NCBI GenBank assembly: GCA_965214705.1
Contig: OZ243972.1
Coordinates: 736,001 to 800,000, forward strand
Source: Alphaproteobacteria bacterium
GTDB taxonomy: Bacteria > Pseudomonadota > Alphaproteobacteria > UBA828
Length of the DNA stretch: 64,000 nt
Direction: 5' to 3'
Shown here: one piece after another, positions 6,349-62,430 of the stretch
Layout: each line of letters begins with the position of its first letter
How positions within the stretch are numbered: the first letter of the stretch is position 1
Notes under the pieces: model-generated
What the model was told of the DNA's origin: nothing
Database searches by the model: none
What the model saw: the letters and a program-made list of their open reading frames with translations, nothing else
Program-made: the position numbers and the translations under genes

Positions 6349-6423
<75 letters not shown>

Positions 6424-53661: not shown

Positions 53662-54344
53662 GTGCGTAGGGCCGAGCAGTGGGATGCGCGAAACAAGAGT
53701 GAGGCGTTGGGAGGCGGAATGAAGGGCATCATCCTCGCCGGGGGCGACGGCACGCGGCTCTTCCCGATCACCAGTGTGGTCAGCAAGCAGCTCCTGCCCG
53801 TTTACGACAAGCCGATGATCTACTACCCCCTCAGCGTCCTGATGCTGGCGGGAATCCGAGACATCCTGGTGATCACGACGCCACAGCAGAGCCGAAACTT
53901 CCGAGACTTGCTGGGCGACGGCAATCAATGGGGCCTTGCGCTGCGTCATGCCGTGCAGCCGAGCCCCGACGGGCTCGCTCAAGCCTTCCTCATCGGCAAG
54001 GCCTTCATCGGGGACGATACCTGTGCCCTCGCACTCGGCGACAATATCTTTTACGGCTACGGATTGGGGAGGATGCTTCGCCGCGCGGCCTACCGGCAAA
54101 AGGGCGCTACGGTTTGAACGAAGCCGCTACGCGGAGTTAGCGGCGTAGAGTTCATTCATTTCCGAGGCGTCGCGGGTGCCGTTTGTTCTGTGCGTTCGCT
54201 TCCCGGTTGCGTCAGTGGCGCTCCGCCCGTCGGGTGGCGGATCCCCAGCAGCCTCCCGATCACCAGTGGTTAGCATCGACCCCTGCGACGGACCGTCGCC
54301 GGATCGGTCCGGCGGCGCGCCGTCGCGATCCAGGGAGATCGATA

Positions 54345-55223
54345 ATGACCGGGACCGCGTGCGACACGAACACCGTCACCCCTCTTCGCCAGCGCATGGA
54401 GGAGCAGCTCCGCATCGCCAATCTGGCCGCGAGCACGTCCAAGGCCTACATCTGCGAGATCAAGAACCTGGCCAGGTACTACGACGCCTCGCCGGACGAG
54501 CTCGACGCCGAGCAGGTGCGCCAGTGGTACCTGGGGCGGATCGACAAGGGGCTCAGTCCGGGCACGACCAACGTCTCCTTCGCCGCGCTGAACTTCCTCT
54601 ACATCGACACACTCGGCTGGCCTGACCATGTCGCCGGCCTGCGCTCCCGCAAGAAGCCCGGCAAGCTGCCGCGCTACATGTCGGAGCAGGAGGTCGAGCA
54701 CCTCATCCTTGCGACACCCGACCTCCGCCACCGTGCTGCCATTGTCACCGGCTATGGCGGCGGGCTCCGCATCTCCGAGACCTTGGCCATCAAGGTCGGC
54801 GACATCCTGTCGGAGAAGAAGCTGCTGCACATCCCCTCCGGCAAAGGCGGCACCGAGAGAATGGCACCGTTGCCGGACATCGTCATCCACTACTTGCGCG
54901 TCTACTACAGGAACATCTGGCCGCGTCCGACGAGCTGGCTCTTCTACGGCGTCTCGCTCGACAGGCCCATCGCAACGGAGACCTTGCAGGCCGCCTTCAG
55001 GAGGGCGCGCGACATTGCCGAGCTCGACCGCAGCTACACCTTCCATTGCCTGCGCCATTCGGCGGCGACCCATCTCCTCGAGCGCGGCGGCGATATCGAG
55101 GTGATCCGGGACATGCTCGGCCATCGAAGCGCGAACACGACCCGTCACTACGCCCGCGTCACCGGCAAGATGTTCGAGGGCCTCGACCACCCGATCTCAG
55201 GCTTCGCAGCGTTGCGCAACTGA
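54345..55223 (+). CDS. XerD-like tyrosine recombinase/integrase
   Basis: GLRISE, GKGG, HCLRH, LGH, ..HY catalytic residues. Confidence 0.93.
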   Translation: MTGTACDTNTVTPLRQRMEEQLRIANLAASTSKAYICEIKNLARYYDASPDELDAEQVRQWYLGRIDKGLSPGTTNVSFAALNFLYIDTLGWPDHVAGLRSRKKPGKLPRYMSEQEVEHLILATPDLRHRAAIVTGYGGGLRISETLAIKVGDILSEKKLLHIPSGKGGTERMAPLPDIVIHYLRVYYRNIWPRPTSWLFYGVSLDRPIATETLQAAFRRARDIAELDRSYTFHCLRHSAATHLLERGGDIEVIRDMLGHRSANTTRHYARVTGKMFEGLDHPISGFAALRN

Positions 55224-57028
55224 CGGCGCGTGGAGGCCGAACGCGCGGGCGTGGCGGAGATCTTCCGCCGCGCCGGCGCCGCTTTCCGTGAGCGCCACAA
55301 AGGGCGCATCGACGCCGCCCGGCTCAAGGTCATGGGCGCCATCGAGGCGTGCCGCACCGCCGTGCTCGGCGGCCACATGTACGCCTGCGAGGGCTGCGGG
55401 CGCGAGCAATCGCGGTAGGGAAGCGGGTTGCCCCGCTCCCCCCGCGCAGATCCGGACGTGCCCGCTAAGGCATCCGGCTCCTCCCTCAGGTCGAACTGAC
55501 GGCTAGTCGTTGATCCGGCCACGGGTGTCGGATTCTCAGCTTGGGCCAGTGTCGAGCTTTAAGTTTGTCGATGTCGGCCCATGTAAATCGGTCCTTTTGC
55601 GATCTGCGGCGTATAATGGCGAGCCACACCCGCTTTAGGCGGACGAGGAAGCGTTGTAAGTACCGGCTGCTGGTCGGGACGGCATAGTAGTTCAGCCATC
55701 CGTCCACCACTTTGCCCAGCCACCTGGCCGTATCCTCGATGTTGTCATGCATCCGCCTGCGTAGCACCTCTTTGATCCGCTTCAGGGTGCGGGCCATCCT
55801 CTTCGCCATCGGCCTGCGCCCCAGCATGAAGTACCCCCGTCTGGTCTTCGCGCAGTAGTGTGTGAAGCCCAGAAAATCGAAGGTCTCCGGTCTACCCTGC
55901 CCTCGGCCTTGGCGGCGCTCTATGGCGTGCCGCCCGAACTCGATGAGCCGGGTCTTGTCGGGATGCAGTTCCAGGTCGAAGCGTCCGAGCCGCTCCTTTA
56001 CGGCCTCCAGAAAGCACTCCGCGTCCTGCTCGTGCTGAAAACCCACCACAGAGTCGTCGGCGTAGCGAACGATGATCGAGTCGCCGTTGACCTCGTGGCT
56101 GCGCCACTTCTTCTGGAACCAAAGATCGAGGACGTAGTGCAGATAAACGTTCGCCAAGATCGGCGAAATCACCGAACCCTGCGGAGTTCCCCGCAGGTCG
56201 TCACGCCACTCTCCAGCTTCCATGACGCCAGCGTTCAACCACTTGATAATCAGCCTGATAACCCGCCTGTCCCCTATCCGGTGCTCTAGAAACCGGACCA
56301 GCCAGTCCCTCGAAACCGTGTCGAAAAACTTGCGGATGTCACAGTCCACTATCCAGTTGATCTTGCGCCTTTCGATCCCGACCGCCAGCGCATCGAGCGC
56401 ATTGTGCGCCCCACGCTCGGGTCGGAACCCGTAGCTAAACCCCAGAAACTCCGCCTCGTAGATCGGCGTCAGGATTATCTCCGCCACAGCCTTCTGGACG
56501 ATCTTGTCCTCTATGGCCGCGACGCCGAGCGGTCGTGTGCCGCCATCCGGCTTCGGGATGTTCACCCGCCGTGATGGCGTCGCCCGGTACGCCCCCGAGT
56601 GCACTCGGTCGTGCAGGTCGGCGAGACGGCCTTCCAGCCCTTCCTTGTACATCCGCCACGTCAGGCCATCGACACCCGCCGCAGCGTCCTTCTTCAACTC
56701 GAAGAACGCCCAGCGCAGCGCAGCGCAGCGACCGTGACGTGATGGAGGAGCGTCGTGAGACGCACCCCAGGTTCCCTTTGTACAAACTGCCGTATCCGGT
56801 CAGCCGCTTGTGACACGCTCTCCCGGTCCTGCGTCCGGCGCGTGCTTTGGCCTTCCAGATTCCCCTTGGGCTCGGCCCTTGGCTCCACCGGCTCCGCCGG
56901 GGCAGGTGCCCCATTGTTCGCCGGCTTCATCGCTGTCGGGTCGGAGGAGGCGCCCCGCGAGGCTAGCCTCCGTCCGCCGCTCAAACGGCCCGTACGGTTT
57001 TCCCGTAAGCCGCTTTCACAAAGGTGTC

Positions 57029-58514
57029 TCAACGAAGGTTCAAGGACGGAACCAGTGAGATCAGGCGAACAAGCCCGTATTCGTCGATCAGCTTGCGCTC
57101 CGGCAACTGTTTCCAGCCAGCGTTGCGCCAGCGCTTGCGACGATGCGACCAGAGCCGCCGCACGATCCAGCCGTCAAGCTGGTGGAAGAGCCCGCGGACG
57201 TGGGCCTTGCAATAGTATTGGCCCCATCCCCGAATGATCGGGAAGGCTTATCCCCTTACATCCGGCTTCTCCATATGTGGGGTGCCGGATCGCTGGGCAC
57301 TTTACGGGCAACCCATTGAGACACGGAAGGAACTGCGACCGTGTCGGATACCGCCGCCGAGGTGATCGGTACAACATGTTGGGGAACCGGAGCCAGAGGG
57401 ATAAGCCTTTGATCGGGTTGATCTCGTCAATCAGCTCCTGCGTGCTGACAGGAGCCTTGCGCCGGGTACGCTGGCGAATCTGGTCCTTGAAGTGCCGGAT
57501 GGATTTCTCACGCGGAACCGCGTAGCGCGCTCCCCCGCGAACCCCGCTCTTGATCTTGGAGGACGACAGCCGGAGAGGCCGCTCGCCCTGCTTGATCTTG
57601 TAGCCGAGGAACTCAAACCCGTGCCTGACATGGACAATGCGGGTCTTCCCGGCGTTGAGGGACACACCCAGCTTTGCCAGAATCCGCCTGGCCGTCTCCA
57701 GTGCTGCGCGGGCTTCCCCGCGTGTGCGGCACGTGATCAGCCAATCATCGGCGTATCGCGTTAGTCGATAGCCGCGACGACGCATTTCCCAATCGAACGG
57801 GGTCAGCAAGATATTGCTGAGCAGCGGTGAAACGATGCCGCCCTGCGGAGTGCCCTGTTCGGTCGGCAGCCTCTTACCGTCGGCCACCACCCCGGCCGTG
57901 AGCATCTGCCTGAGCAGACCTAATACCCGGCCATCCGAGACTCGCTGGTTGACGAGTTCGAGGAGCTTTTCGTGGTCCACGGACCCGAAAAAGTCTTTCA
58001 AATCCGCATCGAGAACCCACTCGTTGCCCTCGTCCAGTTCCCTCCATATCTTGCGTAACGCTCCATGGGCAGACCTTCCTTGCCGGTACCCGTAGTTGGC
58101 ATCGTCGAACACCGGCTCGAAGATCGGTTCCAGCCGGTTCAGCAGCGCCTGCTGGCACACCCGGTCGTAGATTGTCGGGATGCCGAGCGGGCGGAACTTC
58201 CCCGGCTGGCCCGCCTTGGGGATCAGGCATTGGAGAACCGGCTGCGGGTGATACTCACCGTCCCGCAACTCCCGGTGCAGGCGATCGAGATTTGCATCCA
58301 GCGATGCCTCGAACGCCGCTAAATCCTCTCCGTCCACGCCACCGGCACCCCGGTTGCGCTTCACCTTTTCCCAGGCCACCTCAAGGTTCTTCCGCTTGTA
58401 CACCTTGTCCACCAGTGAGTGGACCTTCCTGTCACCCGCCGGGTTGATCCAGTCGATGAGTCTCCTCGGGCCATGATGTCCGGGTCTTTCGCTCAAGGAA
58501 CTTGTCCGCGTCAT
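57029..58514 (-). pseudogene. inner intron RT/maturase disrupted by a MITE
   Basis: KVHSLVDKVY, GTPQGG, YADD; ..INPI|IRGWGQYY.. resumes after the insert. Confidence 0.9.
57243..57409. mobile_element. 167-bp MITE (IS1595 ISSod11-like ends)
   Basis: 12-bp IR AAGGCTTATCCC; 8-bp duplication TGATCGGG at 57235-57242 and 57410-57417. Confidence 0.88.
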
Positions 58515-61416
58515 GGTCCTTACTCACTCATCGCTGTCTCTCGCCGACCACCTCTGCCAACCGCCTTCCCCGGCCCACACGGCCGCCGCTCGCGCGGTCA
58601 CCCGGCTTTCGCCGGGCTTCAGGTACTATTCGGTTGTCCGATTGCTCGCCGCGCATCCTTTCCCATTTCGCCTTTCGGCTTATAGGGTCCGTTATCCCGG
58701 TGCCACCCGGGAACGCGGCGAGCCCTCCTGGGGTCACGTCCAGATCTTCCGTACCGTGCCGCTCGCAAACACCTTGGTGCGACGGGTGGGTAAGAACGCC
58801 TTCGCCGCCATAGTGCCGGCTCGACCTTGCCCCGTCTTTGGCCGACCGATTCATCATGGGGTGGCCCCCTCGATTACGGCCCGGTACTTCTCCGCAAGCC
58901 CTTCAGATTCCACCTCGCGGTGGACACCCTGCCTTCCGGTTGTCTTTCGACAGTGGACCAACTTAGCTCCTCCCTTGGCTGTCTCCGCCGTTTCCGGCTT
59001 CGTGCCCGTTTAGAGTTTCGCTTATCGGCTCACTCCGGCCAGTGAGGAATTACCCCCACTTTTGGATATGGCGCCCCTTACCCGAGCGCCAGTGGGACTT
59101 GAACCCACCTGATCTGGGCGCTGCCCAGCACACACTATGGCCGAGTCTGATTTCTCCATGTCGTTCATCTTCGGTTACGGACTCCTCCTTTCCTCAGCGT
59201 TCCCGCCACGACTCAGCGGGATGACATGGAGACCTCCCAGGTCCCGGTGCAGTGCGTACGTACGTGCGTGGGTTCTCTGACACCGCGGGATTCAGACCCC
59301 CCTCGCCATATCGGTGGGCCAGATGCGACCTTCGGCCAACGAAAGAGCCTCGGCATCCCGGATGATGTTTCTTTCGGTGCTCAATAGCCCCGCCCACACG
59401 CGCCCCTGTCAACGCTTGACCCTCGCCCTCGCGAGCGACGGCCCATGACTCGGGGTGGAAGTGGTGGCTCACCTTCTCCTTCCTGTTGGACTTTCACCAA
59501 CTGCACTCGCACCAGTTCGCCTGGCGCACTCCGCTCTTCAACTCCTGCCGCAACCGCCACTGCCCCACCTGCCAGGGTCTCGCCGCCAACCTCTGGAGCG
59601 AGGAGCGCGCCGGGGACATCCTGCCGGTGCCCTACTTCCATGTGGTCTTCACCCTGCCCAAGGAGGTTGCCGCCATTGCCTTCTGCAACCGCAGGGTGGT
59701 GTTCGACATCCTCTTCCGGGCCGTCGCCGAGACCCTGCGCACCATCGCCGCCGATCCCCGCCACGGCGGCATGCGCATCGGCGGCACCGCGGTCCTCCAT
59801 ACCTGGGATCAGAAGCTCCGCTTCCACCCGCACCTGCACGTGGTCGTGCCCAACGCGGGCTTCGACGTAGACAGTGGCGAGTGGAAGACGGGGAGCACCA
59901 CCTTCCTCGCCCCCGTCAAGGTCCTCGGCAGCCTGTTCCGCCGCCTCTTCCTCGAGGAGCTCGCCCGCGCCCACGGCCGGGGGGACCTGGAGTTCCACGG
60001 CACCCTCGCCCACCTCGCCAATCCCGGCGAGTTCCACGCCACGCTTGCCGCCGCCCGGGCCAGGGACTGGGTGGTCTACGCCAAGCGGCCCTTCCGCGGG
60101 CCTGAGCAGGTCTTCCGGTACCTCTCGCACTACACGCACAGGATCGCCATCTCCGACAGCCGCATCGTCTCCTTCGACGGCGAGACGGTCTCCTTCCGCC
60201 ACCGAAAGCCCAAGGCGCCGGGGCAGAGAAAGCCGCGCTACGGCATCGCCACCGTGAGCGCCGACGAGTTCATCCGCCGCTTCCTGAGGCACGTCCTGCC
60301 GGACGGCATGCACCGCATTCGCTACTTCGGCATCCTCGCCAACGGCTGCCGCGCCAGCACGCTGGAGAGAGCACGCCAGGCTCTCGGCGCCCTCGGCTGC
60401 GCCGCCCCCGAGGGAAGCGTGGACGGCGCTCGGGCCGAGCCCGACGAAGAGCCCGAGATCGGCACCGCGCCCGTGGCCTGCCCCCACTGCGGCGGCGTCA
60501 TGCGCCTCGTCCGCGAAATCCGCCGCCGCCATGAGCCCCGCTCGACGCGCGGCCCGCCGGCGCTGCCGCCGACCCACAGGGGGAAACCGTGAGACGCCCG
60601 CTCGCTTCGGCCCCGCGCAACGGCGCCAAAGCGCCGACGCACGACCGAACCTGTCTCCGCTTGAGCCGGGCTGACAGCCCTCGGCTCACACCCCGCTCAG
60701 TCCTCGCAGCGTGCGCCCGCATGCCTGCCGAAAGACCGGCGCGAGCGTCGATTTTATGCGCAACTCTGCTGCCGGTGGATGCCGCCTGACGCTGACATCA
60801 GCGCACTTTCCACATAGCTCAACTTCGCCTCTCGTGGCCCGCGGCTTCGTTCAAAAGGGTTGGGCAGGCTCTCGAGAGAGAGCCTGCCCAACCCTTAACC
60901 TTTCGCGTACCCGGTTCGCGATCCGGAGCGTTACGGCGTCGTCGCCTTCGACGCGAGTGGCCGCGCGACCGCCATCGAGGAGAAGCCCCGGCAACCGCGC
61001 TCCCGATGGGCGGTTACGGGGCTCTATTTTTACGACAACGACGTCATCCGCATCGCCGAAGAGATCGAACCGAGCGCCCGCGGAGAATTGGAGATCACCG
61101 ACGTCAACCGGCGCTATCTCGATCGCGGCGACTTGCGAGTCGAGCAGTTGGGCCGAGGATTCACCTGGTTCGACACCGGGACGCACGACAGCCTGGTGGA
61201 GGCTTCGAGCTTCGTCCACACCATCGGGAAGCGCCAGAACCAGTGCATCGGCGTTCCGGAGGAGATCGCATACCAAAACGGCTGGATCGACCATACGGAG
61301 CTCGCCGCGCTCGGACATCGTCTGCGCCGGAGCAGCTACGGCCAACACCTGTTGCGGCTTGCCGGCGAGCTCGACGGGAGCGATGCCGCTGTCCCAGAGC
61401 CGTATTCCAACGCTCG

Positions 61417-62430
61417 ATGACGGACCGGAGCCAGACTCCGCAAGAGGCTGCCGCCCCCTGCCATGACGATCCGCCCGGCGAGGTCAGCGTCATCATGGTC
61501 TCATACAGGACCGGGCCCGTGCTCGCGCCTGCCGTCGACGCGGTGCTTGCGCCCGATCAAGAGGGCGTTGGCGAACTGATCCTCGTCGACAATGGCAACC
61601 CGCCAACGGTGACGGCGACGCTCGCCAGCCGGACGGACGCGGACCCGCGGCTGCGCATTGTCAGCGGTCATGGCAACGTGGGCTACGCGCGCGGCTGCAA
61701 CCTCGGCGCGCGAGAGGCGCGGGGACGCCACCTGCTGCTACTGAACCCGGACTGCTGCCTCAGGCCCGGCGCGGTTCCGGCGCTGCTGACGGAAGCTGCC
61801 GCGCTCGGCGACGAATGGATGCTGGGCTGGCGTGTGCGCAATCCCGACGGCACCGACCAGCGCGGGTCGCGGCGGGCGTTGCTCACCCCGCTCACCGCGC
61901 TTGTCGAGGCGTTCCGGCTCGACAGGCTCTCTCCCACGCTGTTTCAGCAACATCGGCTTAGCCAACACGAGACCGCGCTTCCCGAGGTTACGGCCCGCGT
62001 GCCTGCCATCAGCGGCGCCTGCATGATGCTGCCGGCCACCACCTATCGCGCCGCCGGCGGCCTGGACGAGGGCTACTTTCTGCACGTCGAAGATCTCGAC
62101 CTCTGCCTGCGCCTGCACCGGGCCGGGATCCCCATCTACTTCGCACCCCACGTGGAGGCGGTTCATCACGCGAGCACCAGCCGCACGCACCCGCTTCTGA
62201 TCGAGTGGTACAAGACCCGCGGCTTTCTCCGCTACTTCGGGCTGCACTACGGCAGGCTTCATTGGCTGCCCGTTCTGGTGCCGTTGGCGGCAGCGACCCT
62301 CGGCCGTTTGGGCCTCCGGGCCATGCTGACGTTTTCCGTCCTGCCGGGCAGCGCGCTGAAAGTCGTCGTCCGCCTCGCTTATTCCACCAAGCGCCCTGGA
62401 TGGAGGCTTGACGGGCCGCGGTCGTGGTAA
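61417..62430 (+). CDS. GT2 glycosyltransferase (rhamnosyltransferase-like)
   Basis: LVDN, NVGYARGCN, LLNPD, SGACM, GLDEGYFLHVEDLDLC. Confidence 0.88.
   Translation: MTDRSQTPQEAAAPCHDDPPGEVSVIMVSYRTGPVLAPAVDAVLAPDQEGVGELILVDNGNPPTVTATLASRTDADPRLRIVSGHGNVGYARGCNLGAREARGRHLLLLNPDCCLRPGAVPALLTEAAALGDEWMLGWRVRNPDGTDQRGSRRALLTPLTALVEAFRLDRLSPTLFQQHRLSQHETALPEVTARVPAISGACMMLPATTYRAAGGLDEGYFLHVEDLDLCLRLHRAGIPIYFAPHVEAVHHASTSRTHPLLIEWYKTRGFLRYFGLHYGRLHWLPVLVPLAAATLGRLGLRAMLTFSVLPGSALKVVVRLAYSTKRPGWRLDGPRSW

Follow-up and report, generated by a model that had tools for sequence, protein, structure and literature searches.

A 64,000-nucleotide stretch of the genome of an Alphaproteobacteria bacterium of the UBA828 lineage (contig OZ243972.1, positions 736,001 to 800,000; the whole stretch is called the window below) carries a group II intron inserted within a second group II intron. 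Our analysis of this nested pair, or twintron, indicates that the inner element is very probably an endonuclease-less intron that naturally homes to a motif conserved in other group II introns and positioned just before or at the start of the host's open reading frame (ORF). Near-identical copies occupy the same motif in diverged host introns throughout the genome, relatives do so in many phyla, and a short guide sequence in the inner intron pairs with the motif and changes with it. The inner intron and its parts lie as follows.

56935..59133, minus strand: inner group II intron, 2,199 nt here and 2,024 nt in its intact form
56935..56980, minus strand: inner domain VI, with an unpaired A 7 nt from the 3′ end
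56984..57014, minus strand: inner domain V, with covariation at five stem pairs across 34 sequences
57029..58514, minus strand: inner reverse transcriptase (RT)/maturase ORF with RVT_1 and GIIM domains, 436 aa in intact copies, split here by a miniature inverted-repeat transposable element (MITE)
58808..58814, minus strand: exon-binding site 1 (EBS1) ACUAUGG, in a 9-nt hairpin loop of domain I, pairing 7/7 with the 5′ exon and covarying with the target
59134..59140, minus strand: intron-binding site 1 (IBS1) CCAUAGU, the last 7 nt of the 5′ exon, inside the outer intron

Read on the minus strand, the inner intron begins with GUGUG at 59133 and ends with ..CCCGAC at 56935, bearing out the boundaries given in the original prediction, which had been made from the letters of the window. 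The same 5′ GUGUG and 3′ ..GAC ends recur in homologs and fit the conserved group II pattern GUGYG...AY. We aligned the last 100 nt of the inner intron with 33 homologs and folded the resulting 34 sequences with RNAalifold. The consensus shows a domain V stem with a 2-nt bulge and a 5-nt loop, followed by domain VI with its unpaired A, and compensatory changes occur in 10 of the 31 predicted domain V-VI pairs. Rfam returns nothing at gathering level for the inner intron in the window: the best match, RF02001, scores 21.4 bits against a gathering score of 32, and RF00029 also stays below its gathering score. The domain V-VI regions of three relatives (L037, L040 and L068) pass the RF00029 gathering score, at 40.8-42.1 bits.

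In the inner ORF, Pfam identifies RVT_1 (E = 3.4e-40) and, after the interruption, GIIM (E = 8.4e-10). An endonuclease domain is absent: Pfam gives these two domains only, and the 436-aa ORF stops soon after GIIM. The closest solved structures to the inner RT are the group II intron RTs 6ar1 and 7uim, and in structure searches both the inner and the outer RT find IIC-type group II RTs closest. Together, the domain V/VI covariation and the RT/maturase ORF identify the inner element as a complete group II intron. Judged from its sequence, we predict it to be an autonomous endonuclease-less (En-minus) intron, consisting of a ribozyme and a 436-aa RT/maturase.

The outer intron, which serves as host, has the following parts.

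55409..59529, minus strand: outer (host) group II intron, from GUGCG at 59529 to ..CGCGAU at 55409
59271..59494, minus strand: outer ribozyme segment, RF02005 (group-II-D1D4-6), 172 bits
55409..55482, minus strand: outer domains V-VI, RF00029 at 36.1 bits, under the gathering score of 40, E = 1.6e-4
55486..56697, minus strand: body of the outer RT/maturase ORF, with RVT_1 and GIIM, out of frame with its leader (ATG at 59168)

We set the 5′ end of the outer intron (GUGCG) where similarity among five copies stops; minus the inner intron and a 5-nt duplication, it measures about 1,917 nt. The inner intron is inserted in sense, 10 codons past the outer ATG, within the codons KSDSAIV|AMK. The target had been placed in the KSDSAIVA codons near the start of the outer ORF, in the same orientation, and this proved right, with ligation of the exons restoring the frame. 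The description of the target as a coding segment needs amending: it does lie in ORF codons, and it is better understood as a conserved RNA stem and internal loop at the start of domain IV. The window's copy of the twintron itself is dead. Both of its RTs are broken, the inner one split by the MITE and the outer one frameshifted by a 5-nt GCTGC tandem duplication within 56710-56729. This duplication occurs in the window copy only; it is missing from three other type-A copies (host types are described below) and from a contig of a DNA-type run.

Target recognition depends mainly on seven EBS1-IBS1 base pairs plus an A at the 3′ exon's first position. The EBS1 hairpin, GCCG-[GCACUAUGG]-CGGC, lies at 58799-58818, and its ACUAUGG (58814..58808) pairs perfectly, 7/7, with CCAUAGU (59140..59134) in the host intron. 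An eighth pair, G59141-C58807, had been counted as well; since C58807 closes the hairpin stem, seven is the safe count, and over those seven positions the claimed perfect match stands. The closing pair of the stem covaries among homologs (G-C, U-A, C-G). Across the copies in this genome, with wobble pairs allowed, EBS1 pairs 7/7 with its target in 19 of 21 cases and 6/7 in the other two, a 7/7 match that 0.064% of 200,000 randomly drawn genomic 7-mers achieve under the same rule. The first base of the 3′ exon is A at 20 of 20 junctions in this genome and at 47 of 51 junctions in others, as expected for a single-base EBS3-IBS3 contact.

In the 7.9-Mb genome, assembled in three contigs, the 5′ end of the inner intron occurs 21 times and the 3′ end 20 times. 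Ten of the copies are uninterrupted; these differ at no more than 3 positions in 2,024 nt, and all ten retain an intact RT ORF. The intron has thus multiplied recently. Of the 21 copies, 17 occupy one and the same motif in other, diverged group II introns, a call based on a same-strand RT downstream, Rfam matches upstream, flanks and frames. Their hosts fall into types A (five copies), B (two), C (three) and F (two), with one copy each in D, E, H, J and L; one of these copies (C1:511638) is a 292-nt fragment, placed in type F by flank similarity only. Among 19 loci scanned, Rfam finds RF02005 upstream of nine and RF02003 upstream of one. By tblastn, the identity of the host RTs to the outer RT of the window is 100%, 66-78% or about 30%, the last figure coming from the host-family rows. 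Such divergence of the hosts, set against near-identical inner copies, argues for independent insertions; the accessible text of Mohr, Ghanem and Lambowitz (2010; PMC2882425) applies the same argument to Thermosynechococcus elongatus (T. elongatus). Identical unoccupied sites are present for types B (two), C (two) and J (six), and another RF02005-type site is likewise empty in six copies. When we ligated the exons in silico, at least 481 codons stayed open past the junction in 8 of 11 type A-D hosts.

The motif that receives the inner intron is a helix with an internal loop, ..UC(A/G)GA..(C/U)C(A/G)UAGU|A..GAAG.., located just before or at the start of the host RT ORF. The consensus of Rfam family RF01998 (group-II-D1D4-1) includes this site, as ..AGAAgUCAGCAGAgGcCAUAGUAgccg..cggcGAAGGgC, with the insertion point between U55 and A56, and in its structure line AUAGUA and GAAG face each other in an internal loop between two helices. 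In four interrupted hosts (L024, L035, L047 and L068), the RF01998 match begins about 55 nt before the inner intron and ends at the insertion point. Ligated sites fold as this helix and loop in 12 of 41 cases versus 29 of 820 shuffles under a strict minimum-free-energy test, a predicted fold that supports a host RNA motif, short of proof. The flanking helix covaries (GCC/GGC, CCC/GGG, GGC/GCC, UUC/GGA), and GAAG stands on the 3′ strand in 8 of the 12 folding sites. In RF02005-type hosts the motif is translated as the N-terminal leader of the RT. In host types F, H and J the frame across the motif closes 7-32 codons on, before the RT, which argues that conservation of the motif is at least partly at the RNA level. 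We take its internal loop to resemble a loop-E type motif.

Relatives of the inner intron use the same motif in other organisms. Scanning one genome per species, we collected 63 loci with an RT 50-93% identical to the inner RT. Their taxon labels include Nitrospirales, Alpha-, Beta- and Gammaproteobacteria, Thermodesulfobacteriota, ‘delta’, Longimicrobiales/Gemmatimonadales, Entotheonella, Acidobacteriota, Planctomycetota, Chloroflexi, Ignavibacteriae and others. Junctions could be placed for 51 3′ ends and 36 5′ ends. A same-strand group II RT begins less than 900 nt downstream of 25 of the 51 3′ junctions. At nine more, the 40-nt 3′ flank shares 62-95% identity with the flank of a confirmed host, against a ceiling of 60% among 3,000 random draws; one further junction equals that 60%. 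Directly upstream, 13 of 16 external loci show an Rfam D1-D4 match, to RF02005 (five loci), RF02001 (five, four of which also match RF01998), RF02003 (two) or RF01999 (one). These four host families carry D1D4-6, D1D4-3 with D1D4-1, D1D4-4 and D1D4-2 motifs. The host RTs are mutually only 30-45% identical, and the hosts are not of one type; the class E-like label given to them in the original prediction is not upheld. Inner RTs that are 88-93% identical occupy hosts with D1D4-6, D1D4-3, D1D4-4 or D1D4-2 motifs. Tabulating the flanks of homologs had been suggested in the original prediction; the resulting table, with intron hosts for 17 of 21 copies in this genome, a downstream host RT at 25 and a host-like flank at 10 more of 51 external junctions, and D1-D4 matches upstream of 13 of 16 Rfam-scanned loci, does not place the homologs mostly in non-intron targets. 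In public data, the RT lineage comprises at least 120 protein clusters at an identity of at least 74%.

Pairing between EBS1 and target is maintained across these relatives. In 33 external introns it averages 6.64 of 7 positions, a value reached by none of 10,000 permutations of the targets. Twelve of the 33 have a variant EBS1. Seven of these variants (L025, L026, L035, L039, L043, L050 and L051) make more Watson-Crick pairs with their own target than the consensus EBS1 would; among the others, L023 gains a wobble pair, L041 and L045 are equal to the consensus, and L033 and L063 are worse. One contig of a Longimicrobiales metagenome-assembled genome (L024, L035) holds both EBS1 ACUAUGG at CCAUAGU and EBS1 ACUUUGG at CCAAAGU, and an unoccupied host copy there (L024:6019-6101) has CCAAAGU. 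Here the target and EBS1 look as if they are changing together.

The inner intron also contains a motif of the target type, and a second guide sequence had been proposed for it.

58624..58630, minus strand: the inner intron's own target-type motif AAUAGUA, about 110 nt upstream of the inner ATG, pairing 5/7 with its own EBS1
58903..58910, minus strand: proposed exon-binding site 2 (EBS2) GAAUCUGA, pairing 7/8 with 59143-59150, within the RF02001 core; not confirmed
59143..59150, minus strand: proposed intron-binding site 2 (IBS2) UCAGACUC, which belongs to the conserved host motif

The inner intron's own motif, AAUAGUA, closes a small multi-hairpin unit after a domain-III-like hairpin. Across the lineage (n = 24), the own motif makes only 4-5 of 7 pairs with the own EBS1 (mean 4.7), and this poor pairing would spare the lineage from invading itself.

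The 7/8 pairing of GAAUCUGA with UCAGACUC described in the original prediction is correct, and the candidate reaches at least 7/8, without a shift of register, at 10 of 21 sites in this genome, versus 0.165% of random 8-mers. Its assignment as EBS2 is not confirmed. In the RF02001 consensus the segment forms the invariant core, written in upper case, and the identical letters occur in an unrelated host intron in L024. Distant homologs mostly pair at 3-4 of 8 positions, and a U/C change in the segment is untracked by an A/G change in the target.

The recurrence of the nest could also be explained if nests were copied as units, either as the twintron or within the insertion-sequence element of the IS91 family that carries it, so that shared ancestry, rather than repeated homing, would account for it. 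Three type-A copies (the window, C3:1610004 and C1:4025438) have the same outer flanks inside the same IS91-type element, and composite retromobility is named as a possible route in the accessible text of PMC2882425. Yet inner copies no more than 3 nt apart lie in at least nine host types, whose RTs share only 30-78% identity with the outer RT of the window, identical empty sites are present for types B, C and J, and the 88-93% identical inner RTs are spread over hosts of four D1-D4 motif types; we consider copying of nests as units improbable. Nor do we find it at all likely that the intron lacks specialization and inserts at any 7-nt IBS1 followed by A, with intron sites dominating because the genome is crowded with introns. 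The ectopic copies in the hydantoinase-B-like gene, the transposon and the repeat described below would suit such an account, having good IBS1 pairing and a poor upstream match. But at a frequency of 0.064%, the 7.9-Mb genome would offer thousands of sites, and still 17 of the 21 copies lie in introns; moreover, the same site is used in 22 other genomes with labels from at least eight phyla, and EBS1 changes track changes in the host site. Multi-copy, near-identical elements are a situation prone to assembler errors, and the nested arrangement might in principle be an artefact of joined repeats. We regard this as next to negligible in a three-contig genome with the same junctions in 21 places, a coherent target logic and intact frames on ligation, and with the same junctions in independent assemblies of other organisms.

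Several observations do weigh against homing into introns as the natural habit of the inner intron. Four of the 21 copies in this genome lie outside introns: two in a repeat beside a DDE transposase and a NikA-like ORF, one in a transposon with rve and AAA_22 genes, and one antisense in a gene that we take to be of the hydantoinase-B family. Because three type-A copies share their IS91 flanks, part of the copy number may be whole-nest duplication. Among the relatives, several loci share genomes, and the 25 RT-confirmed junctions correspond to 22 genomes. About 16 of the 51 external junctions cannot be shown to lie in introns; at six of them the flank extends 478 nt at most, too short for the full 900-nt search for a downstream RT. 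At L043:3452-5402, five of seven EBS1 positions are altered (CCACCGU), and this EBS1 pairs 7/7 with a new site, ACGGUGG, without host-intron features. L043 is thus a natural retargeting out of introns, and since its rewritten EBS1 fits a non-intron site perfectly, the lineage can leave introns. A by-eye search of domain I for another segment complementary to target positions -8 to -14, as an EBS2, found none that was convincing. We infer that the host motif forms the base of subdomain IVa from its position and a hand reading of the sequence. Finally, contigs from three RNA-type runs and one DNA-type run contain no joint skipping 56935-59133, the RNA contigs being short and 90-95% alike.

Splicing and retromobility of the inner intron are indicated indirectly, by 21 near-identical copies at matching sites. 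As an intron homing into other introns, it would reverse-splice into the sense strand of host intron DNA and would then be copied by its own RT. As this RT lacks an endonuclease, priming would probably come from the replication fork, a route described for En-minus introns (PMC4424553). Excision of the inner intron from the host transcript would rejoin the strands of the host motif, which the insertion sets 2 kb apart, and would also restore the host RT frame in D1D4-6-type hosts; expression or binding of the host RT may depend on inner splicing. Being conserved across several host intron families, the site would offer a harmless, ever-renewed landing pad. A broader reading, which we hold in even balance, is that the lineage forms a clade of endonuclease-less introns across phyla that is mainly an ‘intron of introns’. 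Such a clade would recognize a structured motif at the start of domain IV in at least four structural families, a motif that is probably hard to change; it would be self-immune through two mismatches, and compensatory EBS1 changes would follow host escape, as with CCAUAGU/ACUAUGG and CCAAAGU/ACUUUGG in one genome.

In the window, the nest is five deep: an rfbA-like gene contains an IS91-type element, which contains the outer intron, which contains the inner intron, which contains the MITE. The parts that surround or interrupt the twintron are as follows.

54114..55408, plus strand: left part of the IS91-family element, with a tyrosine recombinase (54183-55223) and the first 59 codons of a Y2 transposase (55230-55406)
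59530..60902, plus strand: right part of the IS91-family element, with the remaining Y2 transposase, to 60592
57243..57409, no strand assigned: MITE of 167 nt with terminal inverted repeats, which breaks the inner RT in its X domain

Without cargo, the IS91-family element is 2,668 nt long. It splits the rfbA-like gene into 53662-54113 and 60903-61420; we read this gene from the ORFs and presume it to encode a glucose-1-phosphate thymidylyltransferase. The outer intron lies antisense in the Y2 transposase gene between codons 59 and 60, that is, between CGRE and HPLFNSCRNRHC. Elsewhere, at L088 (G000:C1:3493300-3496100), an IS91 element that is 99.9% identical and encodes an intact 413-aa transposase sits at nt 441/442 of another inner copy. 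These three kinds of element, the IS91 element and the outer and inner introns, thus form a ring in which each is invaded by another. The MITE is flanked by an 8-bp target duplication, CCCGATCA, at 57235-57242 and 57410-57417, and 30 full-length copies of it, 96-100% identical, occur in the genome alongside a few of about 73% identity.

Other insertions accompany the introns. Three inner copies are interrupted, at three positions, by a 1.69-kb insertion (one is L089, G000:C3:54400-56150). Its 518-aa product matches UPF0236 weakly, and we assume this protein to belong to the ISLre2-type transposase family. Two type-A hosts (G000:C1:2013060 and C1:4033654) carry another insertion about 168 nt past the inner 3′ junction, after ..GGGAACCTGG. 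At L087 (G000:C1:420900-424400) and five similar places, RF02005-type 5′ parts carry an unoccupied, well-matching site, ..GAATCTGACTCGGTCGTAGT|A..; these have no RT downstream. An IS66-family transposase is on the opposite strand, with a second, inverted RF02005 fragment after it. The window also contains a tRNA gene at 6351-6423 on the minus strand (RF00005, 72 bits).

Comparable nesting has been described in a few systems, for which we draw on the accessible text of the sources. In T. elongatus, F3 introns (TeI3a-e) reside inside TeI4 introns, and five of seven lie between the first two ATGs of TeI4 RT ORFs; the authors see in this an evolved strategy of homing into another mobile intron (PMC2882425). 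The system described here resembles that one in using one conserved site at the very start of the host RT ORF in domain IV, and in having identical inner copies in diverged hosts. Unlike the inner intron here, with its own endonuclease-less RT, the F3 introns have no ORF and rely on the host RT, and the intact RT ORF of all ten uninterrupted inner copies rules out an F3-type, ORF-less identity. The F3 introns are also close kin of their hosts (one CL/IIB1 family) in one genome, whereas the hosts here span four D1-D4 families in many phyla. Nested introns of Methanosarcina acetivorans, an arrangement said to provide a perpetual site for homing (accessible text of PMC4424553 and PMC2882425), differ in being archaeal, in reaching five introns deep, and in involving related introns in one genome. 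The Trichodesmium twintron Tr.e.I7/I8 is a bacterial group II intron within a group II intron (Pfreundt and Hess, 2015; PMC4649490). As described in the accessible text of that paper, which calls bacterial twintrons extremely rare, it is a single case in a protein-coding gene for which sequential splicing was shown experimentally, and it comes with no lineage-wide habit. The RF01998 consensus holds the homing site letter for letter; Rfam calls it only a conserved intron segment, and no text that we consulted ties RF01998 to a homing site. In the literature searched, no bacterial intron lineage targeting this motif is described; subscription papers, supplements and the intron database lay outside that scope and may list members.

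What is new here is the combination of an autonomous endonuclease-less RT, hosts from four Rfam families, a habit that extends across phyla, and a target that is a curated conserved RNA motif. Homing of introns into introns was formerly known from a single cyanobacterium and a single archaeon; here it is the defining habit of an entire RT-encoding lineage in many phyla. Intron-finding pipelines discard nested introns (PMC4028801, PMC8919778), and as a result both the lineage and its hosts have probably been under-counted. The 7-bp EBS1 code, together with its naturally retargeted variants, provides a test bed for the target-site rules of endonuclease-less introns. Overall, these introns offer a natural system for studying how mobile elements parasitize each other and explain the deep nests of introns and insertion sequences that arise in some genomes. 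If the broader reading of the lineage as a clade of introns of introns is true, it would represent a parasite-host arms race conducted wholly between ribozymes.

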